Assembly (NCBI GenBank): GCA_942493105.1
Contig: OW818668.1
Span: 1,950,001-1,982,000, forward strand
DNA length: 32,000 nucleotides
Direction: 5' to 3'
From: an uncultured Erysipelotrichaceae bacterium
GTDB lineage: Bacteria > Bacillota_I > Bacilli_A > Erysipelotrichales > Erysipelotrichaceae
How positions within the stretch are numbered: the stretch's first letter is position 1; each line of letters opens with the position of its first letter. The notes below the pieces were generated by a model that worked only from the letters and a program-made list of their open reading frames with translations, had not been told where the DNA came from and did not search any database. Positions 5,080-28,245 of the stretch are shown piece by piece. The translations under genes and the position numbers were made by a program.

Positions 5080-5448
5080 TCAAGCCAAGAAGCGAATGGC
5101 TTCCATGATAATCAGCTTCGCTACGAAAACCAATGATACAATCAGAAAGGCCTTTTGACGAAAGACTTGGTTCTTGTTTATCAGTGCAAACAACGTAAGC
5201 CCTGTCATGGCCAAGCCCAAACTACTCAACAGCTTCGCCGAAAAGCCGGTAAACGACAACACTGCAGACTCGCCAAACCCATAGCCATCACGCAGTGCAG
5301 CCAACAGGCAAATCAACAAGCCGATCACCCAAACGATCGCCAAGGAAGTACCCCATTTCTGCGGCTTTCTTTGAATCGTCAAGGCAATATAAACCACCAA
5401 CACAGCACTCAATACGATTGGACTCCAAAATAAGATTTGATTAAACAT
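5080..5448 (-). CDS. Small membrane protein (four predicted helices), first gene of the TetR-linked operon
   Basis: Start re-assigned to ATG 5448 (MFNQILFWSPIV...), preceded by GGAGGGAACG. The track start at 5460 is a TTG inside the RBS. Confidence 0.65.
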   Translation of the reverse strand: MFNQILFWSPIVLSAVLVVYIALTIQRKPQKWGTSLAIVWVIGLLICLLAALRDGYGFGESAVLSFTGFSAKLLSSLGLAMTGLTLFALINKNQVFRQKAFLIVSLVFVAKLIIMEAIRFLA

Positions 5449-5460
5449 CGTTCCCTCCAA

Positions 5461-5514
5461 ACTAACACTCGTTAGTATGACACTACTATAAACTAACAGT
5501 TGTTAGTTTGTCAA
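5461..5514 (-). promoter_or_regulatory. Promoter with two palindromic operators, probably TetR binding sites
   Basis: On the minus strand, TTGACA (5509-5514) is followed by 18 nt and then TATAGT (5485-5490). Palindrome AAACTAAC-AGTT-GTTAGTTT (5490-5509) fills the spacer. A second palindrome, ACTAAC-ACTC-GTTAGT (5461-5476), sits just downstream of -10. Confidence 0.6.
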
Positions 5515-5571
5515 GCCTTTTTTGTAAAAAAAAAACATTTTTTCATCGATGGTTCGAAATCTAATTATTAA

Positions 5572-5754
5572 TCAGGCTCGGTAGACTGAACTAACGGTGA
5601 TTCTGATTTTCGGGAGTGCCGGGTTGAAGACATTGATGATGGTCTTGTTTTTGGCTTGATCGATCAGGATGTCGACGACTTCTTTGAGATTGATTGGGCT
5701 GTTCACAAAGTGAATGTTTAAACCAAGGTTTTGACCTTGCCTTTTTCGAAGCAA
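5572..5754 (-). pseudogene. Possible 3' remnant of a truncated gene at the edge of the AT-rich block
   Basis: 60-codon ORF with a TTG start and no RBS. The frame is open a further 19 codons upstream to 5811 without any start codon. Its composition resembles the GC-richer left block. Product not recognised. Confidence 0.25.
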
Positions 5755-6002
5755 AACGACATAAATAAAAGTGGAAATGTCATTAGGAAAAGCAATAAAG
5801 AGACAGCCTACTCAAAATGAGTAAGTAGTAATAGTCAGATTATTGCTCTGAAGATGAATTTGCATAAAATACTGTTAATCATATGAAAAATGTCCGAATA
5901 ATTCGATTTTGCGGAATTATAATTTATAGCCATATATACAACGATCGAACCATCCATATTTTTGTGAATAGAAGAGATTGGGTATAAAATTGGGTACAAT
6001 TT

Positions 6003-6090
6003 GAGAAACAAATAGAAACGATTAGAAACGATTAGAAAGCATAAACCCTGATTTTATATGGATTAGAACGAGTTAGAAACGATTAGAAAC
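6003..6090 (+). repeat. Seven 10-bp phased GATTAGAAAC-type direct repeats in two clusters (4 + 3)
   Basis: Copies are GAGAAAC 6003, TAGAAAC 6013, GATTAGAAAC 6020, GATTAGAAAG 6030, then a 21-nt gap, then GATTAGAAC 6061, GAGTTAGAAAC 6070 and GATTAGAAAC 6081. The gap contains AAACCCTGAT, which is half of the T1 stem. Confidence 0.8.
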
Positions 6091-6129
6091 ATTATTGAGA
6101 GTATCTCATGTCCTCCGCCATAAGTACGT

Positions 6130-6156
6130 AAAACCCTGATAGAATCAGGGTTTTTT
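6130..6156 (+). terminator. Hairpin T1 of module A (plus-strand intrinsic terminator)
   Basis: Perfect 11-bp stem AAAACCCTGAT / ATCAGGGTTTT with an AGA loop, running into TTTTTT. Confidence 0.7.
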
Positions 6157-6225
6157 GTATGTTTACGTTTAATTTTGCGTTTAATTTTAAACTTAATCTT
6201 AAACTTAATGATTTTAAACCATAGG

Positions 6226-6250
6226 AAAACCCTTAGTTTATAAGGGTTTT
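6226..6250 (-). terminator. Hairpin T2 of module A (minus-strand terminator, nearest one downstream of the XRE gene)
   Basis: 10-bp stem AAAACCCTTA / TAAGGGTTTT with a GTTTA loop. On the minus strand the stem is followed by TTTTCC. Confidence 0.55.
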
Positions 6251-6434
6251 GACGAATATGGCGAAGGACACTTTATACTCTCTAAATCGATACAATGAAG
6301 CAAGTAATATAACTTTACTTATCAAATAGAAATCTAATTCATATCAATGAAACATAATGATAAAGTCTAATGAACTAAAAACTGATAACCAGCGAAGTCA
6401 TGTCGAAGTATGAATTTAGAATTATAGTTTATGA

Positions 6435-7352
6435 TCAGTGATTATTCAATCGATCCAAGATTATCTGTATTTCTACTTCTACATCACTGTATGTCATAAG
6501 AATACCCTGTTGATCAGTAAAAAGTACGAAATCTGTTTCAGGAATATTTCCATCCATAAGTGGGGCTGCGATATAGATCCTCACGATTTTTCTTGCCTCA
6601 TAATCAACGACCAGATTCCCAAGATTTTTCAGTGATGATGATATGTACCCCATAAGTAGTGTCCCTTTTGTGTTTATATCTCCAGAGAAATAAGTGACAG
6701 AGCCATAAAAATCAAATCCAAGTTTCTTAAGTAGAACAAAAAGCGTGTCAATCTCACCCGTTGATAAAGTCGAGTTAATCATAAGTTGACCTAAATTATG
6801 TCTTGAGAACTTCTCTGATGCTTCTGAGTTTAAGACTTTCATTTCCGCGTAATGACTTGAACCATAATATTTTCCAATAAAATCACCAGTTACATTAGCA
6901 ACGGTATACCAGTCCTCACGATCAACGGCGTCAAGGATCGTTGCATATAACTTCTTAGAGGCTTGATCTTGGTACCAGTTCAACGCTGGTTTTGCACAGA
7001 TTCCCAAGACGATGAAAACAACAAGCAGAACCTGCCATAATCGAATTGAACGATGAGACTTCCTGATGATTCTAGACTCCACTTCCTTAGAGTAATTAAG
7101 CGTATCCAAGACTGCTTCATTGACTTTCTGATCAGGTTCTTGATTTTCAGCTTTTAAAAGTTCCATGATGGAGATCTCTAGTGTTTCTGACAAACGTTCG
7201 ACGATCGCAATATCCGGGAAGTTAATCCCTCGTTCCCATTTCGAAACAGCACCATCTGAAACATGGAGTTTATACGCAAGTTGGCTTTGAGTCATTCCAA
7301 GTTCCTTACGTCTGCTTGCTATGTATTGTCCAATCAATTTACTGTTCATCAT
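6435..7352 (-). CDS. XRE-family HTH regulator with a single TM helix and a C-terminal extracytoplasmic domain
   Basis: The N-terminus (IGQYIASRRKELGMTQSQLAYKLHVSDGAVSKWERGINFPDIAIVERLSETLEISIMELL) is a Cro/C1-type HTH. A TM segment (LWQVLLVVFIVLGICAKPAL) is followed by roughly 180 aa that I do not recognise. Confidence 0.8.
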   Translation of the reverse strand: MMNSKLIGQYIASRRKELGMTQSQLAYKLHVSDGAVSKWERGINFPDIAIVERLSETLEISIMELLKAENQEPDQKVNEAVLDTLNYSKEVESRIIRKSHRSIRLWQVLLVVFIVLGICAKPALNWYQDQASKKLYATILDAVDREDWYTVANVTGDFIGKYYGSSHYAEMKVLNSEASEKFSRHNLGQLMINSTLSTGEIDTLFVLLKKLGFDFYGSVTYFSGDINTKGTLLMGYISSSLKNLGNLVVDYEARKIVRIYIAAPLMDGNIPETDFVLFTDQQGILMTYSDVEVEIQIILDRLNNH

Positions 7353-7718
7353 GATCCAACTTTCTACGACTTCATAATGAGTCCAACTTGTGTGATTTTC
7401 AATGGATTAAAAGTAGAATAGGTCTTATTTTGTAATTGATTCCAAAATTAATGATCAATTTACATGATTCTAAATTCAGTTTCTGAATATCCTCATAGAC
7501 TAGATCATCTACTGTAGTTGACTTTTGAGAAATTCATCCAGTAAAGTCGGCAGGAACTAAATAAATCCAATGAGTATACAATTGTATAAATTAACCATAG
7601 AATAATTAAATCATTATTTTTAGCTTAATACTATATCAAATCAAAGTAGTTTAATCGTTTGGTCTGCAAATTCAAAATTAATAACTTAATAAGTAATGAC
7701 TTTATGCATATTAGTCTT

Positions 7719-7953
7719 AATCAATGTTCAAATCAATGTTTATGTTAAGTTTAATTTTAAGTTTAAATGGACGAATATTCAGAAATATCTAGAAAGAAAT
7801 AGAAATCAAAATCCTGATAGAATAAGGGAAAAGAAGAGATGGAAAGTTTAAGAAACCATTTAGGACCTCTCTCATGTCCTCCGACATAGTGAATAAAACC
7901 CTGATTCTATAAGGGTTTTTTGATGGTTTGTGACCATAGAATGACCATACAAA
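7719..7953. repeat. Composite repeat module B (type 2)
   Basis: Order of parts: doublet AATCAATGTTCA/AATCAATGTTTA (7719-7742); TTAAGTTTAATT/TTAAGTTTAAA (7745-7767, reverse complement of the module A/C AAACTTAAT doublet); GACGAATAT (7770-7778); TAGAAA repeats; decayed T1 copy (7808-7828); core CTCATGTCCTCCGACATA (7871-7888); hairpin (7895-7921); GATGGTTT; doublet TGACCATAGAA/TGACCATACAAA (7931-7953). It is collinear with module D. Confidence 0.85.
7895..7921. terminator. Hairpin of module B (bidirectional terminator candidate)
   Basis: Stem AAAACCCT / AGGGTTTT with a 9-nt loop. The plus strand has a T-run and the minus strand a TTTTA tail. It lies downstream of the 8179..9243 ORF and its extension. 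Confidence 0.6.
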
Positions 7954-7965
7954 TCGCAGAAAATA

Positions 7966-8178
7966 CTAACGGTATACCTTACCTTTCGTTTTTCGCGAAA
8001 TCATTTTCCATTTTATTCTTGTATTTAGGTAATTTTCATAAGTAAACTTTCCTAGACCACCGACACCTTGGGATTTTGTATCATCAATACAAAACAACTT
8101 TAAATTCTCTCTATAGACGTTATCTTCGAAAAGATTCTCGTTATTTAGATGTTTTGAAAGATAATTGACGAACTCGTC
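7966..8178 (-). other. 70 open codons in the same frame immediately after the TAG stop of the 354-aa ORF
   Basis: Manual translation after the TAG at 8181..8179 gives DEFVNYLSKHLNNENLFEDNVYRENLKLFCIDDTKSQGVGGLGKFTYENYLNTRIKWKMISRKTKGKVYR, then TAG at 7968..7966. There is no plausible independent start or RBS. Confidence 0.4.
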
Positions 8179-9243
8179 CTAATGATCCTCCATGATAACC
8201 GCTACACTACCCAACGCATTTTGCCTACTTTCAGCTTCAGGTAATGCTGATAGATCTTTGTTGTATGACAATGCAATATAAATCAATCTATCAAAATCTA
8301 AAGCAGGTAATCGTTCGAATCCCCTCGGTTGACCATACCCGGTATTGTAAAGGAGTCTTTCTCTCCATCTTGAACCATCTGAGACTCTTATATATTCTGA
8401 ATCCTCGTTTGATCTCACTAACCCCAGTTGTTCAGTGCTTATCAGATCTTGGTTAAGGGGCATAAAGAAAAAGTTCTCATCTAAATCTACGATTCTCCCG
8501 AATAACTCAAGCTTGATTATTTCTCTTTGTGCTTTTTGTTTAAGAGAATTCAAGTAGTATCGCTCAAAAGACTTAGAGTACTTGAAACGTCTCATAAATA
8601 ATTCGTAACCGATAAATCCCTTGAGCTTTGGGAAACCATTGTGTCTGTAATTACAATCCCAATAACTCACCATATGGCAATATTCCAAATGAACAAAACC
8701 TTTATTTTCGTCGATGAACTCTTGGAACTTATCAAAATCAACGAGTTCAAAATTCTCATTGATCGAATGCAGGATCTCTATGATATATTCACCACCTAAT
8801 TTAACAATATATGGATAAACCCACACTGGGATATCTTCAAGTTGTAAGAGTTTCTCAACATATTCTTGACGGATATAGCCGTTATAGGACCTGGTAAAAA
8901 CACAATAAAGAATGATCTTTTGAATTACAGATAATTTTGCTATTTTGTCATCTGAAACTTTCTGTGCATAAAACCGCGAAGGGATAACCAAATCTTCTTG
9001 TTTATAATGGACAATACATTCACCTTTATAAAAGAAGTTCGAACCGTCTCTTCTGTCTCTCAACACTTCCATAACAGTGGCAACATCATTGTGCAAATCT
9101 TTAGGGAATGTGAGAAAAAGGAAATCTAGTTCAGATGGCTTGCTTAATTCTGGGCTTTCGATCTTCTTTAGTCTTTTCTTAAAAAACACAGAGTTCCCTT
9201 CCTTCTGAACTGTCTCACTTTTTGCGACAGTTCGGAGATACAC
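8179..9243 (-). CDS. Hypothetical protein, no family recognised (possibly a nonsense-interrupted longer gene)
   Basis: 354-codon ORF. The 9243 start is a GTG with no RBS. An internal GTG at 9189 follows GAAGGAAGGG and is a better start. The sequence is Tyr/Phe/Glu-rich with no TM segment or motif I can name. Confidence 0.6.
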   Translation of the reverse strand: MYLRTVAKSETVQKEGNSVFFKKRLKKIESPELSKPSELDFLFLTFPKDLHNDVATVMEVLRDRRDGSNFFYKGECIVHYKQEDLVIPSRFYAQKVSDDKIAKLSVIQKIILYCVFTRSYNGYIRQEYVEKLLQLEDIPVWVYPYIVKLGGEYIIEILHSINENFELVDFDKFQEFIDENKGFVHLEYCHMVSYWDCNYRHNGFPKLKGFIGYELFMRRFKYSKSFERYYLNSLKQKAQREIIKLELFGRIVDLDENFFFMPLNQDLISTEQLGLVRSNEDSEYIRVSDGSRWRERLLYNTGYGQPRGFERLPALDFDRLIYIALSYNKDLSALPEAESRQNALGSVAVIMEDH

Positions 9244-9603
9244 TCATCATTTTATACTTTACATAGATAATCCAAACAGTTATGTGCATTTTTTACACAG
9301 AAGTGATTTTCACACTAACACTTGAGTTAATTATGAACCAAAGTTAAATATTCATCAATACGAATCCTTATTTTGTATGTCAAAAAGATACTCGTAATAT
9401 TGGGTTCCTGCTATCTCGATACAATAGACAAGTCTAGAAGATCATATTTAAAACTCAAACTTAGTGACCATACAAATGACCATACAAAATGTAAACCACG
9501 GGAAACAATGGGAAAGGAATTGCTTAAATGTTCTTGAAATATCGGCTTTTGAAGGCCTGGGAAAGCCTTAATTCTCATCTCATGTCCTCCGCCATAAGTA
9601 CGC

Positions 9604-9630
9604 AAAGCCCTGATAGAATCAGGGCTTTTT
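9604..9630 (+). terminator. Hairpin T1 of module C
   Basis: Stem AAAGCCCTGAT / ATCAGGGCTTT with an AGA loop and T-run. Relative to module A, the A-to-G change in the left arm is compensated by a T-to-C change in the right arm. Confidence 0.7.
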
Positions 9631-9699
9631 GTATGTTTGCGTTTAATTTTGCGTTTATATTTAAACTTAATCTTAAACTTAACGATTTTAAACCATAAG

Positions 9700-9724
9700 A
9701 AAACCCTTTGTTTATAAGGGTTTT
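9700..9724 (-). terminator. Hairpin T2 of module C (terminator of the lipoprotein/blaR1/blaI operon)
   Basis: Stem AAAACCCTT / AAGGGTTTT, 50 nt downstream of the lipoprotein stop (9774). On the minus strand it is followed by TTTTCTT. Confidence 0.65.
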
Positions 9725-9773
9725 GACGAATATGGCGGAGGATATTATTTACTTGCTTGATAGATAATCAACT

Positions 9774-10229
9774 TTAATTAGGCTCACTTAGATAACCAAG
9801 AAAAGCATCAATGTCTGCTTTTTGAATTTGGTATAGACTATACTCCTGCTTACTTTGATCAAATAAGTCTAGTGAGGAAATATAAACATTATCTCCCTCG
9901 ATCAAGATGTATAGTTGACTTACCATTAATGAGTTTCCATTAAATCTGATTTGATATGTAAAAGTTCCCGGTCCACCCATAAGTTCACCAGCTTCTCTTT
10001 TTTTATTAATACTCATTGAGTGATTGATGATTGTGGATAACTCGGTTATTTCTACAGACTTGTCGATGATACGTATTGGCTCAGGTAAATAACTCGAATA
10101 GATCGGCATATACTGAAATACACCAATTTCAGTGATTACATCTGATTTTCCAAATGCATTAAATAGCTTCTGTGACGAACACGAAGCCAATGCTATTACT
10201 GCGATTAAAGTCAACATTAGTTTTTTCAT
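9774..10229 (-). CDS. Lipoprotein of unknown function
   Basis: Start re-assigned to ATG 10229 (MKKLMLTLIAVIALASCSSQ), which gives a signal peptide plus lipobox LASC. It is preceded by CGGAGAATGTC. The track extension to 10325 overlaps the blaR1-like gene. Confidence 0.75.
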   Translation of the reverse strand: MKKLMLTLIAVIALASCSSQKLFNAFGKSDVITEIGVFQYMPIYSSYLPEPIRIIDKSVEITELSTIINHSMSINKKREAGELMGGPGTFTYQIRFNGNSLMVSQLYILIEGDNVYISSLDLFDQSKQEYSLYQIQKADIDAFLGYLSEPN

Positions 10230-10270
10230 GACATTCTCCGTACGATATTTTACTATCTCTATATCTATCG

Positions 10271-10286
10271 TACTATTGTAATAGTA
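10271..10286. promoter_or_regulatory. BlaI-type operator palindrome inside an internal promoter for the lipoprotein gene
   Basis: TACTATT-GT-AATAGTA has the same half-site (TACTAT) as the palindrome upstream of blaI. On the minus strand it lies in the 17-nt spacer between TTGACA and TACGAT. Confidence 0.5.
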
Positions 10287-10302
10287 TATTGTCAAATAAC
10301 AT

Positions 10303-11229
10303 CTATAAATTCGCAAGAAGAACAAAGTAAGATATGAAAATAACTATAATCAGTGCCCAAACTGTGTACATCCTATTTGGCTTGTACTCTAATTGAGTCT
10401 TGATCCGACGGATTAAGGGATGTTCAGAGAATCCCGAGCCTAACTGTATGCCCCTGTTCTGGTTGAAAAGAACGACTGTCTCAAGATATTTCTTTTGATT
10501 TACCTTACCTATCCAACGTATCGCTTCTCGATCGGCTTCGATCTCCAGGTCTTCACTAAAGCGATTAAAACACATCCAAACCAAAGGATTGAACCAATGA
10601 ATCGAACATACCACCAATCCGAATAATCTCTTCAGATTATCAAAGTTAACCTGATGTGCCTTTTCATGGTGAATTATATAATCAAAATAGTCCATTTCGA
10701 AATGAACCGGGAGAAGTACACTTGGTCTGAATATTCCAAACAAGAAAGGACCGGATATGTCAACATTCTCATACACCTTGATATCATGAAATACCCCAAG
10801 AAATTTTGAATGCTTAATTAATTTACGATGGTTGATCGTTGACATAATGAATGAGTCTAAAATAGCAATTACTCCTAAAATCCAAAGAATTGAGATGATC
10901 TGAAAGAACATGAGAATCAGATTCGATTTAAATGTTATTGGGTGATAATTGACAGCTTGACTAATGATGTTTGAAAAGTAAAATGGATTCAATCCTTGTG
11001 TTGAGGTGATATTGATACCAAGCAATTTGTAAAACCTGACAATGCTGAATGAGGTCACATAGGAAGCCGGTATTACTAGTCTGATAGAAAGGATCAACCA
11101 CAATATTGCATTGATGATTGGATTATATCGGGCAAACTTTCGATACAGCAAAATCAAAAGCGCAACAAGGCTGCTTATAAGTGAAATATTGATTGTCCAA
11201 TAACTCCATTCAATCAACACTGGAAACAT
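10303..11229 (-). CDS. BlaR1/MecR1-like M56 family membrane metalloprotease lacking a C-terminal penicillin-binding sensor domain
   Basis: 308 aa with N-terminal TM helices and an HExxH zinc motif (IIHHEKAHQ) in the position typical of peptidase M56. It ends after one more TM helix. Its start abuts the blaI stop. Confidence 0.75.
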   Translation of the reverse strand: MFPVLIEWSYWTINISLISSLVALLILLYRKFARYNPIINAILWLILSIRLVIPASYVTSFSIVRFYKLLGINITSTQGLNPFYFSNIISQAVNYHPITFKSNLILMFFQIISILWILGVIAILDSFIMSTINHRKLIKHSKFLGVFHDIKVYENVDISGPFLFGIFRPSVLLPVHFEMDYFDYIIHHEKAHQVNFDNLKRLFGLVVCSIHWFNPLVWMCFNRFSEDLEIEADREAIRWIGKVNQKKYLETVVLFNQNRGIQLGSGFSEHPLIRRIKTQLEYKPNRMYTVWALIIVIFISYFVLLANL

Positions 11230-11231
11230 CG

Positions 11232-11594
11232 TTAGTCCTTAGAATCTTTTATTGTATTGAGAATTTTATCGATCTCTTCTTGACTGAGTTTTTGATTGCT
11301 CACGAAATGAGAAAAGAAAGTTGAAACTGAACCTTTATATAAACGATCGATCAAGGATTGAGTCGCATCCACTTGTTCTTGATCTTTGGCAACCATCGCC
11401 GAGCAAAAGAACTTAGGATCTGTTCTTCTAATATATTGTTTTTCGATTAATTTCTTAATGACTGTATAGGTTGTGTTTTTATTCCAACCATACATCTCCA
11501 TAGCTTTCTTAGCAAGCTCTGAGGCATATGCGTCTCCATAGGTCCAAAGCAAATCCATTACTTTTAGTTCGCTTTCATATAGCATTGTGTTCAC
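11232..11594 (-). CDS. blaI: BlaI/MecI/CopY family winged-helix repressor
   Basis: 120 aa. ESELKVMDLLWTYGDAYASELAKK...WNKNTTYTVIKKLIEKQYIRR is typical of penicillinase-repressor family proteins, and the gene is paired with an M56 protease gene. Confidence 0.8.
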   Translation of the reverse strand: MNTMLYESELKVMDLLWTYGDAYASELAKKAMEMYGWNKNTTYTVIKKLIEKQYIRRTDPKFFCSAMVAKDQEQVDATQSLIDRLYKGSVSTFFSHFVSNQKLSQEEIDKILNTIKDSKD

Positions 11595-11601
11595 CTAAAT
11601 C

Positions 11602-11621
11602 TATACTATCACGATAGTATA
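11602..11621. promoter_or_regulatory. Operator palindrome within the blaI promoter
   Basis: TATACTATC-AC-GATAGTATA is a perfect 9-bp inverted repeat. On the minus strand it sits in the 17-nt spacer between TTGTTG and TATAGA, about 25 nt upstream of the AGGTGA RBS. Confidence 0.6.
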
Positions 11622-11725
11622 TCAACAACAAGAGAAAGCTTTTGTATAATTTACATCTTTAGATTATTTAAGGCGCTTTCATTTATATAATTGAATAATT
11701 CAATTCAAGATTTTTGGATTAAAAG

Positions 11726-11943
11726 TTAAGTTTAATTTTAAGTTTAAATGGACGAATAATCAGAAAGATATAGAAATAGTTAGAAATCAAAACCTTGATA
11801 GAATAAGGAAAAAGAAGAGATGGAAAGGTTAAGAAACCATTTGGGTCCTCTCTCATGTCCTCCGCCATAGTACTCAAAACCCGCTAAATCAGCGGGTTTT
11901 TTGATGGTTTCTATCGCTTGTGACCATACAATGAACATACAAA
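11726..11943. repeat. Composite repeat module D (type 2, same architecture as module B)
   Basis: Order of parts: TTAAGTTTAATT/TTAAGTTTAAA (11726-11748); GACGAATAA (11751-11759); TAGAAA repeats; decayed T1 copy; core CTCATGTCCTCCGCCATA (11852-11869); hairpin (11876-11902); GATGGTTT; doublet TGACCATACAA/TGAACATACAAA (11921-11943). Confidence 0.85.
11876..11902. terminator. Hairpin of module D
   Basis: Stem AAAACCCGCT / AGCGGGTTTT with an AAATC loop and TT. The stem sequence differs from A, B and C but pairing is preserved. Confidence 0.65.
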
Positions 11944-12248
11944 TTTATTTTAACTAAATGAAGTCAAGTTAAACTCCCAAAACAATTCCAAAACTCTAAA
12001 TTTGTACTCTACATATTCTGGTTGAACTCATTTGGTCGAATGGTTCAGCTTAGTACATATACAGATTCAAATTTGTGGCTCTACAAAAGTCGACCTATTC
12101 CAGTTTTCATAACGTCTTTTTTTACATACAAAATTCATGAATTATGGTTAAGTTTAATTGTATATTTTGAATATGGGGACCAATCTCCCTTTTTAAAATG
12201 GATTTATAGTCAAAGTTATTCAAATGTCATATACGTTAAATTAATTCT

Positions 12249-15200
12249 TCAGTCTTGATTAAATTTGAATCCTTTTTGTTTGAATAACTTCACACATGTA
12301 TCTACCACATCGGCATCGAACTTTGTCCCTTTATGTCTTAAAATCTCATCTAGTGCAGCATCAATACCCAAAGCAGCACGATATGGACGATCTGAACTCA
12401 TGGCTTCAACGCTATCTGCTACCGCAACGATTCTACTTTCTAAGCGAATTTGATCCCCTACCAATTTATTTGGATAACCTGAACCATCCAGTCGTTCATG
12501 ATGTTGACATACAATGTCCGATACTTCAATTGGGAAATTGATATCTTCAATGATTTCGTGCCCTTGAGTAACATGCGTTTGTAGAATGGTAAATTCCAAT
12601 TCGCTAAGTTTTCCTGGCTTATTGAGATAATCAGCTGGAATCATGATTTTCCCAATATCGTGGATCAAAGATCCAAAATTTATATTCGTAATCCGATCTT
12701 GAGATAATCCCATTTCCGAAGCGATTGCACAAGATAATTGTTGTACTCGTCTTTGGTGTCCTGCGGTATACACATCTCTCATTTCACCAATTCTTGATAA
12801 GACATTGATCGATTCATTCAACATTTTGGTCAACTTTAAGTTACGCTCTTCTTTTCTATCTGAGATCAATTTAAAGATCATGAATAAAATGATAAAACCA
12901 ATGAATATATAGATGGCATATGCACCTGTTGTAAGCCACCAAGGAGGAGAAATAATAAGGCTTATAGATAACCCTTCTTCATTCCAAATTCCGTCTGAAT
13001 TGGTTCCTTTGATCTTAAGTGTGTAATTTCCAATCGGTAAATTCGAATAGTCCAGGAAATTTCGCGACCCAATTAATATCCAATCCTGATCAACACCTTC
13101 CAACTTATAAGCATATTGATTTCGATTGGGGATGGTATAATCCAATGATGCGAATTCAACATGGATATTCTTTTGCTTATAATTCAATGATATTTTTCCC
13201 TGATTAAATAATTCATTTCGATAATCAATCGTTTGATTCATTACTTTGAATCCAGTAATGACCATAGGAGGCAAATAGGTACTCTTACTAACTTTGGAAG
13301 GATCTATGACATCAAATCCATTGGGACCACCAAACAGCAAAATCCCATTCTTGGTGATCGTAGAAGCATTATTATTGTATCCGTTACCTTGCATACCATC
13401 CAAAAGGTCATAATTGGTGAAGATTGTTCTGTCAACATTCAAAGTAGAAATACCTTTGTTGGTACTGATCCACAATAGACCCGATGAATCCACTTGAATT
13501 GATCTAATGGTGTTGTTAGGCAAACCATCTTCAGTTGTATAAAGTTTAAATAATCCAGTTTCAATGTCGAATTGATTCAGCCCATATTGAGTGCCAATCC
13601 ACAAATGATGATCTGCATCTTCAGTGATACTGTGAATGATATTATCGCTTATGCTGTTATCTCCACTTGTTTGGTAAAGATAACGTGTAACTTTACCATT
13701 CAATCGGTTCATTTTATTTAATCCACTGTTCGTGCCAATCCACAAATTGCCTTCATGGTCTTCAAATAAGACATTGATCGTATCAGAACTTAACGTTTCC
13801 TTATTTTTAGGATCTGAATAATATCGGATGAAACGATCATTTTGAGCATCATACAGATTAAGTCCTTGTAAAGTCCCTACCCATAATTGTCCATCATGAT
13901 CTTTCAAAACGGATAATACTGTGTTATGACTTAGAGAATCTTCACGCTCGTCATTTTTATAGGTAATCCATTCATTGGTTACCTTATTGATTTTATTTAA
14001 TCCTCCAAGACTTCCGACCCAAATCGAGTTTCCATCTTCAACAATGGCAGAAAGATCACGATTTTCCTCTTTGGTGATATCAGACAAAAGATAGGTTTGA
14101 GTCTTGAGTTGAAGATCGATCTTATTAAGACCTCCGTTATTGGTACCCAACCAAATAACTCCTTGTGAATCTTCCATCATCGAGAAAATATTGGCATCAC
14201 TTAATGTATACCAAACATTAGAGGTGCTGCGATAGGATTCAAATTTACGCGGTTTGATGTTGATTTTACTGACTCCGCCTCCTCGCGTCCCAACCCATAA
14301 GTTACCAGATTGATCTTCAAAGATGACGCGAACGTCATTATTTCCAATACTACCATCATCATTATCATCATGAACCATCAATGTAAACAAACCTGTTTTT
14401 TTATCAAAAATATTCAGTCCACCAGAACTGCCTACCCAAAAATTACCCACACTGTCTTCATAAATACTAGTAATAACATCTTCTGTAGATTGACCATTGG
14501 TATGATAATAACATTGCGTTTCAGAAGTAACGGGATCAAGCGAACAAAGCCCCTTTTGAGTACCCAACCATAAAACACCATCCTTATCCCAATAAAGGGT
14601 CCTTACTCGATTTTGGATCGTATTAAAATGAGTAAAGGTCTCTGTAAGTGGATCAAAAAGATCCAATCCTTTATTAGTGGCTAGAAGTAATTTTCCATCT
14701 TGGGTTTCACTGATCCACCAAACACGATTATCACTTATACTGTTTGTATTGTCATCATGTAGAAATGATTTAAAAGTTTCTGTTTTTTTGTCAAATTTAT
14801 TTAAGCCTTTTGTATAAGTACCAAACCAAAAGGTACCACTTTTATCTTGATAGATACTATGAACACTGTTATCACTGATGCTGCTAGAATCCTCATCATT
14901 ATGAACATATGATTTAACAAGACCAGTTGTTGGATTAAGGACTTGTATCCCACCACCCCAAGAAGCAATCCATAAATTATTGTTTTCATCAACATATATA
15001 ACAGAACAATTTGCATTACCAATGGAACTGCTGGTTTGACCTCCACGATAAACTTCAATATGATATCCGTCATATTTATTTAGTCCATCTTCAGTTCCAA
15101 ACCATAAAAAACCCAATTTATCTTGGGTAATTGAATAAACCGTATCATGAGATAATCCTTCAAGAGATGTTATTTGTTCAAATTCAAGGTGATCATTGAA

Positions 15201-17806: not shown

Positions 17807-17913
17807 TTTTATCCGTAAATTTTGTTTAAAAATCAATCGATGTAAATTATTTCATAATGATGAAAATTTTTCTTTACATCTTGTAAGTGTTTTGATAAAC
17901 TAGCAATTAAGAT

Positions 17914-18075
17914 TGATAGAGGCGCGTTTGAGATGAGTAGTTAAGGGAGAGGTCACTCTAAGAACTTAACGAAAGGCAAGAATGCCGAAACCATTGGATT
18001 GAAACCCAATGAGTTGGTGCTTGAAGGAATACTTCAAGGACTCCTGTTCCAAAAGAACAGAGGAGCTATTGATGT
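17914..18075 (+). promoter_or_regulatory. Lysine riboswitch (L-box) aptamer
   Basis: The conserved L-box blocks appear in order: AGAGGCGCG...GAGATGAGTAG, GAAAGGC, GCCGAAA, TGG, ACTCCTGT and GGAGCTAT. Paired helices are visible between them (CCATTGGATT/AACCCAATGAG, CTTGAAGG/ACTTCAAGG, CTGTTC/GAACAG). Confidence 0.8.
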
Positions 18076-18094
18076 GGACCTTGTTTAAAATGGG

Positions 18095-18141: not shown

Positions 18142-19518
18142 ATGAGTAATCAAAATCGGCATCTTCAGGAATTAAGCAGTACAGAAACCCCTTTAGCCAG
18201 AGAAATCAGTTTATTTGGAGGGGTCAGTATCCTTGTGGGAATCATGGTTGGCTCAGGTATTTTCTATTTAGGGTCGTATGTGTTTATTTATGCAGGAAAT
18301 TCTCAAGGGTTGGCTTTGTTGGCGTGGGTCGTTGGAGGTGCTGTGACTTTGATTTCAGGTTTATGTTATGCTGAATTAGGAGCCATGATGCCTAGAGCTG
18401 GTGGCAGTTATGTTTACCTGCGTGAAGCCTATGGTAAAGCTGTAGCCTTTATGAGCGGCTTCAGTGGATTCATCTTGGGTAGTTCAGGTTCGATTGCTGC
18501 TTTGGCTCTTGCTTTTGCGACAATTCTCAGTAATTTTATAGCCATTGATGCAACGATTCAAAAAGTTGTTGCAGTAAGTTTGATTGTCTTATTGACACTC
18601 ATCAACTATTATGGAGTTAAGTTTGGATCTTGGGTTCAAAATCTATTTACGGTTGCGAAACTTATTCCAATCTTGATCATCTTAGGTTTTGGATTGATTC
18701 TAGGAACTCAAACTCCAGATTTATCATTAGGTGATTTAAGTTTAGGCAATATTTCAGCAGTTATATCCATGGTTGCGATGGGTGTTGTGGCAACCTTATG
18801 GGCTTATGAAGGTTGGACCAATCTGAATACGGTATCCGAAGAATTAAAGAATCCAAAAAGAAACTTGCCTTTAGCTTTGATCATTGCGATTGCGTGCGTA
18901 ACTGCATTATATGTCTTGTTTAATTTTGCGATCTATCGCGTCCTAAGTCTTCAAGAAATCATAACTTTAATTGAAAATGGTGACTTCTTCTTAGGAACAG
19001 CCGTAGCTCAAAATGTATTGGGCAGTTTAGGATCAATCTTGGTTGGTTTAGGGATGTTGATTTCGGTGTTTGGGGCGACCAATGGTTGTGTCATGGTGTT
19101 TCCAAGAAGTTACTATGCCATGGCAAAAGATGGTTTATTCTTCAAAAGCATCGGCTATATCAATCCAAAAACAAAGACACCAACCAATGCGATCTTATTA
19201 TCAGCAATCGTATCCATCATCCTTGTCTTCTTCCGTAATTTAAATCAGTTGACTTCACTGGTTGTTCTACAAGGTTTGATTTTCAATGGTTTGATCTTCT
19301 TATCTGTCATTATTTTTAGAAAGAAATTTCCTACTTTGGAAAGACCTTATCGTGTATGGGGTTATCCTGTGGTTCCGATTTTAGCAGCCTTGGTCATGGT
19401 TGGCTTATTGGCAAATACCTTGTTGACCAGTGATTTCAACAATACCGTCATTTCCTTAGCGATCCCTGCCTTGGCTTATGTGATTTATCTTTTCATCCCC
19501 AAAACAAAAACCCAATAG
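18142..19518 (+). CDS. APC-superfamily amino acid permease (probably lysine-related, given the L-box)
   Basis: 458 aa, about 12 TM helices. The N-terminal motif (GVSILVGIMVGSGIFYLGS) and the segment WAYEGW are typical of APC/LAT-type transporters. Confidence 0.8.
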   Translation: MSNQNRHLQELSSTETPLAREISLFGGVSILVGIMVGSGIFYLGSYVFIYAGNSQGLALLAWVVGGAVTLISGLCYAELGAMMPRAGGSYVYLREAYGKAVAFMSGFSGFILGSSGSIAALALAFATILSNFIAIDATIQKVVAVSLIVLLTLINYYGVKFGSWVQNLFTVAKLIPILIILGFGLILGTQTPDLSLGDLSLGNISAVISMVAMGVVATLWAYEGWTNLNTVSEELKNPKRNLPLALIIAIACVTALYVLFNFAIYRVLSLQEIITLIENGDFFLGTAVAQNVLGSLGSILVGLGMLISVFGATNGCVMVFPRSYYAMAKDGLFFKSIGYINPKTKTPTNAILLSAIVSIILVFFRNLNQLTSLVVLQGLIFNGLIFLSVIIFRKKFPTLERPYRVWGYPVVPILAALVMVGLLANTLLTSDFNNTVISLAIPALAYVIYLFIPKTKTQ

Positions 19519-26019: not shown

Positions 26020-26874
26020 ATGAAGAAAATCACATGGATTGGAACAGGAGTCATGGGCCATGCGATGGTCACACATTTGATCAATGCTGGTTATCCAATC
26101 ACCATTTATACCCGCAGTAAACAAAAAGCTCTGGATTTAGCCAACAGAGCAAAAGTCGTTGATTCGATTGAAGAAGCCGTTAAAGAAGCAGATGTTGTGA
26201 TCATGATGGTGGGTTATCCAAGTGATGTAGAATCAGTAAGCCAACAAGTCTTTAAGTTTGCTCCAAAAGGCGCACTTTTAATCGACATGACCACATCTTC
26301 TCCATCTTTAGCGATATCGTTATATCAGCAAGCTAAAGCCTTTGGAATCAGAATGCTTGATGCACCTGTTTCCGGAGGTGACATTGGGGCTAAAAATGCC
26401 TCATTGACGATAATGGTTGGAGGCGATGAATCTGACTTCAATGAAGCCTCGGATATCTTTAAACATCTAGGTAAATCGCTCAATTATATTGGAACAACTG
26501 GTTTTGGTCAACATTGCAAGATGGCAAATCAAATCGTGGTAGCAGGCAATACCATTGCGATCAGTGAAGCCATTCATTATATGTTGTCTACAGGGCTAGA
26601 TCCACAAAAAACATTGAATGCCTTAGGTGGTGGTGCAGCCAGTTCTTGGCAACTCCTCAACAATGGACCAAAAATGATCAACAGGAATTTTGAGCCAGGA
26701 TTTTATGTTCACCATTTTGTAAAGGATTTAAAACTCATTGAAGAAGAAGCACGTCAAGCAAATATAAATCTACCTATGGTTCATCAAGTGCTAAATCTAT
26801 ATCAACATCTTATGGATGATGGTGATCGAGAACTAGGAACTCAAGCTCTCATACGTGCATATCGAAAAGACTAA
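26020..26874 (+). CDS. NAD(P)-dependent beta-hydroxyacid dehydrogenase (3-hydroxyisobutyrate / 2-hydroxy-3-oxopropionate reductase family)
   Basis: 284 aa. The N-terminal Rossmann motif is WIGTGVMGHAM, with DAPVSGG and a catalytic-region KMANQ typical of the family. Confidence 0.8.
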   Translation: MKKITWIGTGVMGHAMVTHLINAGYPITIYTRSKQKALDLANRAKVVDSIEEAVKEADVVIMMVGYPSDVESVSQQVFKFAPKGALLIDMTTSSPSLAISLYQQAKAFGIRMLDAPVSGGDIGAKNASLTIMVGGDESDFNEASDIFKHLGKSLNYIGTTGFGQHCKMANQIVVAGNTIAISEAIHYMLSTGLDPQKTLNALGGGAASSWQLLNNGPKMINRNFEPGFYVHHFVKDLKLIEEEARQANINLPMVHQVLNLYQHLMDDGDRELGTQALIRAYRKD

Positions 26875-26974
26875 AGAAGCCATTGTGAAGTTGTACATTA
26901 AAAGTAGACAGATCAAATAAAAAACATTTGAACACTGTCTACTTTTTTCATATCCTTTAGGAAAGGAGAAACGA

Positions 26975-27352
26975 ATGGGAAGAAACAAAGGCGGCACAAA
27001 CAAAAGGTACAGTTTTGAAGAGAAGTTAAGAGTGTGTAAACGGTATTACGAAGAACATTGGTCCACCCACGATTTATCAAAATTGGAAGAAGTCCCTTGG
27101 GGAACAGTGTGTAGATGGGTGATTGAATACCGAGATCAAGGGGAAGAAGGGCTGAGACCCAAGAAAAAAGGAAGACCTAAGCCGGTAAAACCTAGACAAG
27201 GGATGAGTGAACTTGAGCAAGTAAAGTTAGAGAATCTAGCCCTTAAAGTGGAGGTTGAGCGCTTAAAAAAAGGTTACACCGTGAAAGGAGTTGGTTCAAG
27301 GAAGGTGTACGTCACTTTAGACGGCAAGATTATCAAATCGTCGATAAATTAA
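26975..27352 (+). CDS. IS3-family transposase OrfA (HTH plus leucine zipper)
   Basis: 125 aa with a helix-turn-helix-like N-terminus and a coiled-coil (LEQVKLENLALKVEVERLKK) ending at the frameshift window. Confidence 0.85.
   Translation: MGRNKGGTNKRYSFEEKLRVCKRYYEEHWSTHDLSKLEEVPWGTVCRWVIEYRDQGEEGLRPKKKGRPKPVKPRQGMSELEQVKLENLALKVEVERLKKGYTVKGVGSRKVYVTLDGKIIKSSIN
27265..27272 (+). promoter_or_regulatory. Programmed -1 ribosomal frameshift site of the IS
   Basis: AAAAAAAG in the orfA frame TTA AAA AAA GGT. The -1 frame is open from 27271 straight into orfB (RLHRERSWFKEGVRHFRRQDYQIVDKLKKVYGTT...). Confidence 0.7.
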
Positions 27353-27357
27353 AGAAA

Positions 27358-28191
27358 GTGTATGGGACGACGTTCGTTTTGAGGTATCTCGGATTAAATC
27401 GATCCGGTTATTATAAGTGGGTGAAACGAAAGGACATTAAAACTCAGTATGAACTAGATCGAATTGACCTGACCAAACTTCTCAAACAAGCCCACCATAA
27501 GCATAAAACCTACGGATATCATAGTTTAGCCAAAATGATCCGAAATCAAACCGGGTGGGTCTTCTCAGATCATCTCGCACATGTGTGTGCGAAAGCAGCA
27601 GGAATCCGGTCTAAAGCAAGAAGATCAAGTAGTATCAAGAGTGGCACGGAGCACAAAGTACTCAAGAATGAAGTTCAAGGTTTCTGGAACGCCAGGAAAC
27701 CTCTAGAGATCGTGGTCTCCGACATGACTGTTTTGAGAAACAGAGGTATCAATTGGGAGTGGACCTATATTCTGGATACCTTCAATAACGAGATCATCGC
27801 TTCCTCCTTATCTTCTAAAAGAGGCGATATAAAGCCTTACTTCGAGACACTTGAGCAACTCAAGACCAAAATAAAAGGAGCAGAACATCCCGTCATCCTT
27901 CACACAGACCAAGGGACTGTCTACTCCAGCCGAGCTTATCAACAAGCTCATTTGAATTATAACATAACCCAATCGATGAGCCGAAGCGGTACGCCGACAG
28001 ATAATCCAATCATCGAGGCGATCAATGGGTGGATCAAGGATGAACTTTATTACGATCATCATTATCATAAAGCGGATGATTTGCCTAAACTTATTACAGA
28101 GTACATTATCTATTTCAACACCGAACGACCTGCCTACGCCTTGAATTACAAAACCCCAGTCCAATTTAAACAAGATCTGGGGTTTGAATGA
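27358..28191 (+). CDS. IS3-family transposase OrfB (DDE/RNase H-fold catalytic domain). Expressed as an OrfAB fusion, with the -1 frame open from 27271
   Basis: The DDE triad context is visible (VSDMT, HTDQGTVYSS, NPIIEAINGWIKDE). The annotated GTG at 27358 is only the first start codon in this frame. Confidence 0.85.
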   Translation: MYGTTFVLRYLGLNRSGYYKWVKRKDIKTQYELDRIDLTKLLKQAHHKHKTYGYHSLAKMIRNQTGWVFSDHLAHVCAKAAGIRSKARRSSSIKSGTEHKVLKNEVQGFWNARKPLEIVVSDMTVLRNRGINWEWTYILDTFNNEIIASSLSSKRGDIKPYFETLEQLKTKIKGAEHPVILHTDQGTVYSSRAYQQAHLNYNITQSMSRSGTPTDNPIIEAINGWIKDELYYDHHYHKADDLPKLITEYIIYFNTERPAYALNYKTPVQFKQDLGFE

Positions 28192-28245
28192 ATATTTTCT
28201 ATTAATATGTCTACTTTGGCTTTACAACTTCAAATTGCTTCTTTT

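Follow-up and report, generated by a model that had tools for sequence, protein, structure and literature searches.

A displaced fragment of a tRNA 3′ end, lying in the orientation of the gene itself, is the classical sign of a site-specifically integrated genomic island (PMC4383910). Partial tRNA copies mark the ends of islands, and successive integrations push the older elements outwards (PMC4383910; 10.1101/2020.12.28.424599; PMC5704250). The cis-mobilizable elements (CIMEs) of the ICESt1/ICESt3 integrative and conjugative element (ICE) family in Streptococcus thermophilus and of the streptococcal integrative and mobilizable elements (IMEs) keep both attachment (att) sites, attL and attR, and have no integration or transfer genes (PMC5704250). 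Here we analysed 32,000 nucleotides of an uncultured Erysipelotrichaceae bacterium (GenBank assembly GCA_942493105.1, contig OW818668.1, positions 1,950,001 to 1,982,000 of the forward strand), a stretch hereafter called the window and numbered from its first nucleotide. Positions 5865–11944 very probably represent a tandem array of integrase-less, CIME-like mini-elements built by site-specific recombination at the 3′ end of tRNA-Ser(GGA). Four composite repeat modules (A to D), each centred on an 18-nt core, join the elements, which are designated E0 to E3 from left to right.

As reported for CIMEs (PMC5704250), the units would be lined up with further elements at a target gene's 3′ end as a result of repeated site-specific integration into the att site in which the gene end lies. 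Unlike in CIMEs, at least four units stand in a row here, each of 1.7–2.3 kb with one operon, three families of flanking arms are found on one core, and no conjugation genes lie nearby; the integrase-bearing relatives of the units look phage-like (S24 repressor, replication genes). CIMEs derive by decay of a larger ICE or IME and are mobilised in cis once they have accreted with a functional element, whereas the units in the window are known as att-bounded cargo only. The tycheposon islands of Prochlorococcus (10.1101/2020.12.28.424599) are similar in that tRNA-targeting elements with a tyrosine recombinase push older ones outwards, and partial tRNAs and remnants are scattered in a variable island. 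The present locus differs from them in phylum and integrase family and in the lack of a replication module, and its units, which lack an integrase, have both arms complete, with putative arm-type boxes (discussed below). The tDNA islands catalogued by Islander/TIGER likewise extend from a tRNA gene to a 3′ fragment displaced from it, with a crossover in the T-stem or 3′ part, and tandems are recognised among them (PMC4383910). Islander tandems need an integrase of their own for each member, and 125 tandems of at least two members, and only four of at least three, were listed (PMC4383910). Because of this requirement, an integrase-less array such as this one would be filtered out, and the frequency of arrays that are invisible to integrase-requiring island finders is probably underestimated. 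The miniature-cassette family with three specificities appears to be undescribed in the searched literature, the kind itself (tandem accretion, CIMEs, and tRNA islands) being known.

In a self-comparison of the whole 32-kb window, repeats of the module type were confined to approximately 5865–11944. The core, CTCATGTCCTCCGCCATA, occurs on the + strand in exact form at 6105, 9579, and 11852 and with one mismatch (C>A) at 7871, against a chance expectation of 0.01 matches in the window; a weaker inverted copy lies at 9731–9748. An earlier reading of this DNA, made from the letters and open reading frames (ORFs) and referred to below as the sequence-only reading, had described the core as invariant and always in the same orientation. 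The orientation holds for all four direct copies, but the core is not strictly invariant because copy B carries the mismatch. The reported near-identity of modules A and C was reproduced, at 90% over 190 nt (6103–6292 and 9577–9766), and between modules B and D the identity is 89% over 158 nt and 83% when 222 nt are compared. The likeness between A and C begins at the core and extends rightwards only, the left parts of the two being unlike. A and C each contain a degenerate inverted core with a hairpin (6216–6270 and 9690–9748, respectively), and tandem boxes of 11–12 bp are present in all four modules. The GC content drops from 40–47% at 1–6 kb to 33–35% at 6–12 kb, so that the block does start where a GC-richer region ends, as had been stated, but the low GC content reaches ~18 kb, past the array. 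Neither a tyrosine nor a serine recombinase was detected in the 32-kb window, and the remark that no cognate recombinase is in view holds for it. An Rfam scan of 5400–12400 gave nothing at the gathering threshold (the best match was Trp_leader, with 27 bits against a threshold of 41), and permissive thresholds yielded only weak chance matches in the modules.

The core was identified by scanning the 18-mer against 185,579 species genomes, which gave 69 loci (L numbers, here and below, denote loci from other genomes or viral contigs). The matches lie in Erysipelotrichaceae, save for chance occurrences within coding sequences of Thermoleophilia and other high-GC bacteria. Directly before the core, 12 of the Erysipelotrichaceae loci have ...GTGAGTTCGAAT, the body of a tRNA gene that ARAGORN calls tRNA-Ser(GGA) in 10 of them. 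The core is identical to positions 73–88 of this tRNA (its last 16 nt) plus TA; it contains the 3′ strand of the T-stem, the 3′ strand of the acceptor stem, the discriminator, and CCA, followed by TA. In every core copy outside a tRNA gene, the identity to the tRNA ends at the boundary between the T-loop and the T-stem.

Several loci show the tRNA together with an array. In L060, two further cores (2481 and 4349) come after an intact tRNA (878–965, with its core at 950), the intervals being occupied by single genes or gene pairs, and in L082 an intact tRNA is followed by one more core. The pairs L056 to L062 and L049 to L019 would fit the same pattern if the respective 8-kb blocks adjoin. Runs of cores without a tRNA are present in L013, L035/L092, L096, L097, and L099. 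In a complete 2.04-Mb Erysipelothrix genome the core occurs in its tRNA only, and contigs of 1.24 and 1.66 Mb contain two exact copies each. In these large contigs the core is therefore clustered and not scattered through ordinary intergenic regions; such scatter was what the sequence-only reading had named as an argument against its own view. Relatives retrieved through the neighbouring 1026-aa gene (L074 and L075, 59–60% identity) contain neither core nor boxes, and the TetR/FMN (flavin mononucleotide)-reductase pair of L075 is only 39–43% identical to that of the window. In L071 (200–5400) and L070 (6066–9758), both viral contigs that bear the core, the first cargo after the tRNA-Ser or core copy is of the defence type, comprising a type I restriction-modification system, a PIN-domain protein, a DNA methylase, and an IS256-family transposase. 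No integrase was found on these two contigs.

The modules have a common order: a P arm, the core, a spacer of 6–7 nt, a terminator hairpin (H), and a P′ arm. Each arm holds a pair of tandem 11–12-bp boxes that belongs to one of three families, K (consensus TGACCATACAA), K′ (TGGGTATAAGAA), and K3 (GTTTAATTTT). In the window, the K boxes have eight matches (0.9 expected), six of which lie in modules; the K3 pair has five (0.03 expected), in modules only; and the K′ pair has one (0 expected), in module A. Across approximately 60 junctions from all loci, the P-arm boxes stand at −114 (K) or −122 to −126 (K3 and K′) from the core, a few copies that have decayed or consist of a single box lie closer (−102 to −116), and the P′-arm boxes stand at +38 to +53. 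A-rich TAGAAA(C/T) repeats in 10-bp phase (repeat family D4) lie between the P-arm boxes and the core. Among 28 different copies of hairpin H, six of the nine base pairs change on both sides yet stay paired. Conservation of the structure in this manner fits an element that has to give the rebuilt tRNA a new terminator.

The first junction, module A, begins with the right (P) arm of E0, designated Pa (5865–6104, +), which includes phased TAGAAAC repeats at 6004–6039 and 6065–6090. Pa is 80–92% identical to sequences upstream of cores in L046, L053, L066, L060, L013, and L099, with differing cargo to the left. Its K′ boxes (TGGGTATAAAATTGGGTACAA, 5979–5999, +) lie at approximately −126 from the core and are present at the same offset in L060, L046, L066, L079, L096, and L099. 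Core T_A, the att core made up of the last 16 nt of tRNA-Ser(GGA) plus TA, spans 6105–6122 (+), and hairpin H_A (6130–6154, +) is a tRNA-type intrinsic terminator according to a terminator scan and covariation. The P′ arm that starts E1 carries K3 boxes (GTTTAATTTTGCGTTTAATT, 6167–6186, +) at +44 from the core. Beyond it, an inverted unit (6186–6270, −) with K3-like boxes (6186–6208), a hairpin H′ (6226–6250), and an inverted core T′ (6257–6270) is the predicted terminator of the E1 gene.

In module B, the right arm of E1 (Pb, 7744–7870, +), with K3 boxes at 7749–7768 and phased TAGAAA repeats at 7781–7806, is 94% identical to L060 2337–2540. It is followed by core T_B (7871–7888, +), which has the single mismatch, hairpin H_B (7895–7919, +; inverted repeat and covariation), and the K boxes of the P′ arm that starts E2 (TGACCATAGAATGACCATACAA, 7931–7952, +, +42 from the core). 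Module C consists of the right arm of E2, namely K boxes at −114 (9465–9487) plus the Pc arm (together 9465–9578, +), a layout that is also found beside the integrase-bearing elements in L091, L092, and L097; core T_C (9579–9596, +, exact); hairpin H_C (9604–9628, +), which was detected by the terminator scan and shows compensatory changes relative to L013; and K3 boxes (9641–9660, +) in the P′ arm that starts E3. A second inverted unit (9659–9748, −), with K3-like boxes at 9659–9683, H′ at 9700–9724, and T′ at 9731–9748, is the predicted terminator of the E3 operon. Module D contains the right arm of E3 (Pb, 11725–11851, +, K3 boxes 11730–11749), core T_D (11852–11869, +, exact), hairpin H_D (11876–11900, +, covariation), and K boxes (11921–11942, +), for which there are two readings, a P′ arm of the K type or the constant flank behind tRNA-Ser in most related genomes. 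The window resembles the sequence downstream of the L003 tRNA as far as position 12102.

The arm families explain the apparent alternation of the modules. The P and P′ arms are K′ and K3 in module A, K3 and K in module B, K and K3 in module C, and K3 and K in module D. E1 (6105–7871) consequently has K3 boxes at both ends, E2 (7871–9579) has K boxes at both ends, and E3 (9579–11852) again has K3 boxes at both ends. The sequence-only reading had distinguished two module architectures, type 1 (A and C) and type 2 (B and D). They are not two kinds: type 1 is any junction with a K3 left arm as its right half, type 2 is any junction with a K3 right arm as its left half, and they alternate because the element families alternate along the array (K′ | K3 | K | K3 | K). 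If the modules are att junctions, the ends of a cassette are predicted to match, whereas the two halves of a module need not. The same box family is found at both ends in 11 of 13 fully bounded cassettes from all loci, including the three in the window (binomial P ~0.004 at an assumed chance match rate of 0.45). Both ends of E1, of E2, and of E3 are furnished with a core, a hairpin, and boxes, and none of these elements contains integration or transfer genes. They fit the definition of CIMEs, in which attL and attR are kept and the recombinase was lost or never present.

Comparison with L099 and L013 illustrates how the contents vary between genomes. In L099, the arm with K′ boxes and Pa and its core lead directly to the hairpin, K boxes, and E2, and the window has E1 exactly between them. 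The E3 operon belongs to a K-armed element of 7.4 kb in L099, where it lies another 4 kb along, and forms a cassette of its own in L013. In these comparisons, cassette gain or loss falls exactly at the cores. The locus is thus not invariant among relatives, and the genes between the modules vary in the way that the sequence-only reading had anticipated, while the modules stay. The arms are also better conserved than the cargo. Between E2 and L099, identity is 100% in the K boxes, 91% in Pc, and 92% in Pa, compared with 70% in the gene; between E3 and L013, it is 93% in Pb where aligned, compared with 71–81% in the genes and 65% in the promoter region. Conservation of the arms above that of the cargo points to selection on the arms or homogenisation among the copies. 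The earlier suggestion of spread by recombination, as opposed to common descent of the loci, agrees with these data.

Homologous arrays contain integrases of a suitable type. A 343-aa protein with Phage_integrase and Arm-DNA-bind_4 domains (Pfam) is encoded in L091 and L092, and L097, a 2.27-Mb contig of a metagenome-assembled genome, encodes an 83%-identical integrase at the end of a phage-like element that also encodes an S24 repressor, a DnaA/IstB-like ATPase, and a ParB-methylase. In these three loci, the integrase lies 1.2–3.3 kb upstream of a junction composed of K boxes, arm, core, hairpin, and K boxes; in L097, the integrase is followed by two K-armed cores with a one-gene cassette between them. 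Three paralogous sites have a similar layout of tRNA, hairpin, a box given twice, and integrase, each with its own box sequence: tRNA-Leu(CAA) with ATTGCCTGGA in L056, tRNA-Gly(TCC) with TGACTATACA in L098, and tRNA-Gly(GCC) with TTGGCAYTACA in L102. K boxes also follow tRNA-Trp(CCA) and a hairpin at one prophage end (viral contig L072, 1–160) and a partial tRNA-Trp copy in L073 (60–140), a viral contig with phage genes identical to those of L072, indicating that one arm specificity pairs with at least two tRNA cores. The sequence-only reading had proposed to look for a tyrosine or serine recombinase or an IS200/RAYT-type HUH enzyme elsewhere; a tyrosine integrase of the lambda type with an arm-binding domain is what the homologous arrays hold, in place of an HUH enzyme. 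A search for relatives with the L056 integrase gave nothing, and none of the genes beside the tRNA or the Pa arm in other loci is an integrase.

In phage lambda, the N-terminal domain of Int binds the arm-type sites P1/P2 and P′1–P′3, and the lambda paradigm combines an arm-binding integrase with tandem repeats whose distance from the core is fixed. Because the homologous arrays combine an arm-domain integrase with tandem repeats at a fixed core distance, the boxes are read here as putative arm-type sites of heterobivalent (lambda-type) tyrosine integrases. As in lambda att, the core is flanked by arms of ~50–130 bp with short direct-repeat sites. The phased A-rich repeats of the P arm might, by analogy with lambda att, serve as bending or excisionase sites. 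In contrast to lambda, the box sequences are unrelated, an inverted core with a hairpin stands beyond the boxes in many arms, and the boxes themselves are putative.

A coherent history of the array can be proposed from this anatomy. Each element would once have had an attP site in which an identity block of 19 nt (the 18-nt core plus a T) and then a terminator hairpin stood between a P arm and a P′ arm. Integration into the tRNA gene, or into the core left by an earlier element, would regenerate the core on both sides, and the hairpin of the element would replace the tRNA's own terminator. Because the core is regenerated on both sides, the array would read core, element, core, element, with all cores in the orientation of the tRNA. 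Each module would then be the P arm of the left element fused through the core to the P′ arm of the right element, with three arm specificities (K, K′, and K3) using one core. The window would accordingly comprise the K′ right end of E0, the K3 element E1, the K element E2, the K3 element E3, and a terminal K-type flank. E1–E3 could move only with a cognate integrase supplied in trans by another element. Their intact arms argue for elements that still move, whereas the stop codon in the E2 gene, the lack of a detectable cognate integrase, and the lack of evidence for circles or empty sites argue against it. On this account, the composite modules become a readable anatomy, and similar arrays could be read by searching for the tRNA end and then for matched arm boxes. 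It also adds, for Erysipelotrichaceae, from which few mobile elements have been described, an integration hotspot at tRNA-Ser(GGA) where regulators, membrane-stress operons, restriction systems, and genes of unknown function are stacked as very small integrase-less units.

Several observations weigh against the proposed tRNA-anchored array. No tRNA gene is present in the whole 32-kb window, and the left end of E0 lies beyond its left edge, so that the attachment of the array to the tRNA is not in view here; the array of this genome presumably abuts its tRNA-Ser to the left of the window. Searches with tblastn using the L056 and L091 integrases detected no integrase remnants in the window, and none of the best 120 homologues of the K-family integrase is located on the 2,032,407-nt source contig. 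Integrases for K3 and K′ were not found, and box scans of viral contigs for them gave nothing or chance intragenic matches. The ends are unmatched in two of the 13 bounded cassettes (L013 2445–5326 and L056 to L062), the latter of which carries a nested insertion. Furthermore, the assignment of the boxes as arm-type sites is taken only from the domain content of the integrases and from position. Remnants of transfer genes were likewise absent from the window.

The inverted core with its hairpin (T′–H′), which lies beyond the boxes in many left arms, is a further difficulty, as the simple model does not predict it. Other copies occur in L060 (1102, 2632, and 4499), L082 (9553), L087 (1291), and L099 (5967–6038 and 6795–6851 in reverse-complement coordinates). 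T′–H′ always closes a cargo operon at its 3′ end and accompanies the cargo from one arm family to another, and a weaker inverted core-like motif is found outside the P-arm K boxes of integrase-bearing elements. T′–H′ may be only a second terminator that arose by inverted duplication, or it could be an extra integrase site or a site for cargo swapping. As a separate observation, hairpins H or H′ of some relatives contain in their loop a 1.3-kb unit with inverted repeats of ~35 bp (TTGAGTCTGTTC...GTGACAGATAAATAAAAGG), which carries a PadR/BlaI-like gene and a gene of ~290 aa and no transposase (L056 6517–7844, L079 ~1320–2640, L096 from ~2560 onwards, and L067 ~6663). TTTAT is duplicated in L056, and the unit looks like a hairpin-targeting mobile insertion cassette; it is absent from the window.

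The sequence-only reading had taken the modules for small mobile non-coding elements that seeded a hotspot. Such elements, comparable to miniature inverted-repeat transposable elements (MITEs) or repetitive extragenic palindromic (REP) sequences, would have inserted between pre-existing genes. The modules are indeed non-coding, 210–290 bp long, and partly palindromic in A and C, and a different element bounded by terminal inverted repeats inserts into hairpin loops in relatives. However, the core equals the 3′ end of tRNA-Ser, arrays start at that tRNA, and in large contigs the copies are confined to one locus; a core that is not dispersed rules out a MITE- or REP-like repeat. In addition, the halves of the modules assort independently while the cassette ends match, which is the reverse of what mobile modules predict, and no target-site duplications flank the modules. 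We therefore consider this explanation extremely improbable and regard the modules as att junctions at the tRNA-Ser 3′ end. Slightly less remote, and still very improbable, is a purely expression-related role in which the repeats are terminators, small RNAs, or tRNA-like 3′ ends and no recombination takes place. The hairpins are good bidirectional terminators with covariation, T′–H′ always ends a cargo operon, and the P arms and 9190–9464 are strongly conserved. This explanation nevertheless leaves the tRNA-end core, the fixed box geometry, the matched arms, and the integrases in the arrays unaccounted for, promoter-like sites are not enriched, and no Rfam family matches; an expression role for the hairpins alone can be compatible with att junctions. 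A local tandem duplication of the tRNA region, followed by decay to pseudogene remnants and capture of unrelated genes, has almost no chance of being correct. It would account for a repeated unit that includes the tRNA end and its terminator, but the identity to the tRNA stops sharply at the T-loop/T-stem boundary in every copy, which rules out duplicated tRNA pseudogenes, and the sequences upstream of the core are four conserved arm families unrelated to the tRNA.

Integrons comprise the integrase IntI, the site attI, and the promoter Pc, and their attC hairpins carry RYYYAAC/GTTRRRY core sites. The array resembles them in its promoter-poor or single-operon cassettes, which lie in one orientation between recombination sites and do not encode the recombinase. 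It differs in having no IntI, attI, or Pc promoter, in its tRNA-end cores with double-stranded arm sites, and in its tRNA anchor. A true integron was rejected, as the 32-kb window contains no tyrosine recombinase (intI) and the sites are tRNA-end cores with arm boxes; modules B and D lack the palindromic second half expected of attC, and no defining features of a clustered regularly interspaced short palindromic repeat (CRISPR) array were found. The sequence-only reading was right to set aside an integron, a CRISPR array, or a known insertion sequence (IS), and the cassette-array organisation that it proposed stands, as a product of recombination. A more dynamic alternative is a working, integron-like cassette platform made from lambda-type att sites, in which cassettes are kept competent; we consider it possible but unlikely. 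It would be a reservoir and not a graveyard, and the equally doubtful corollary is that the integrases of incoming phage-like elements routinely excise, re-order, and export the cassettes in trans. All 13 bounded cassettes are 1.3–3.7 kb long with one to three genes and no integrase, their two arms are complete and better conserved than the cargo, the same cargo occurs at different positions and in different arm families across genomes, and the cargo genes are nearly always directed against the tRNA. On the other hand, neither circles nor empty sites nor polymorphism within a population came to light (L078 and L082 stem from the same metagenome and do not represent close strains), the premature stop in the E2 gene suggests decay, no cognate integrase was detected for the source genome, and gene conversion among the copies could explain the conservation of the arms instead. 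Only tentatively can the platform be extended to a tRNA-Ser site with selectively maintained arms and trans-acting integrases of visiting elements, where T′–H′ would be a second site that swaps operons between arm families. If the cassettes are mobilised in trans, the locus would be a natural integron-like cassette platform that uses lambda-type sites.

The cargo of the elements in the window, read as the CIME-like array, consists of functionally unrelated genes on the − strand. Of the three units listed earlier, the regulator and the blaI operon were confirmed, whereas the 354-aa orphan ORF proved to be part of a 407-codon gene with an in-frame TAG. E1 carries a 305-aa XRE-type helix-turn-helix protein with a C-terminal membrane part (6435–7352), which matches Pfam HTH_3 (E = 1e−11) and NCBIfam repressor families. 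E2 carries the 407-codon gene (7966–9189), whose function is unknown and in which the TAG (8179–8181) follows codon 336. The window sequence beyond the TAG stays alignable in frame, and the full-length homologues P0242–P0245 (408–412 aa, 58–74% identity) read through for 71 more residues; the gene is probably a pseudogene. Only six proteins out of 5.8 billion belong to its family, and searches of Pfam, NCBIfam, and PADLOC gave no match. The 275 nt upstream of this gene (9190–9464) are 91% identical to L099, compared with 70% for the gene itself; they may extend the P arm, have a regulatory role, or encode a small RNA. E3 carries genes for a BlaI-like repressor (11232–11594) and an M56/BlaR1-like membrane protease without a sensor domain (10303–11229), both assigned by Pfam and NCBIfam, and for a small lipoprotein (9774 to ~10231; the listed ORF runs to 10325). 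The lipoprotein label, its ATG (~10231), the ribosome-binding site, and the lipobox were read by eye. The E3 operon is also present in L013 (74% nucleotide identity) and L099 (75.5%) in other contexts.

Outside the array, a pair of operator-like 19-nt inverted repeats (CAAACTAACACTCGTTAGT and ACTAACAGTTGTTAGTTTG) with an 11/12 promoter match lies at 5458–5510, before the gene row for a 126-aa protein, an FMN reductase, and a TetR regulator. The 60-codon ORF at 5572–5754 (−), between the GC-richer block and the Pa arm, which had been proposed as a gene remnant, has no Pfam match. An IS of the IS3 family occupies 26873–28244, with terminal inverted repeats (26873–26928 and 28191–28244) and ORFs at 26975–27352 (HTH_Tnp_1) and 27358–28191 (rve integrase core); apart from its transposase, which bears no relation to the att modules, the window has no recombinase-type gene. 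A lysine riboswitch (Rfam RF00168, 81.9 bits) is located at 17909–18076 (+), directly upstream of an amino-acid permease gene (18142–19518).

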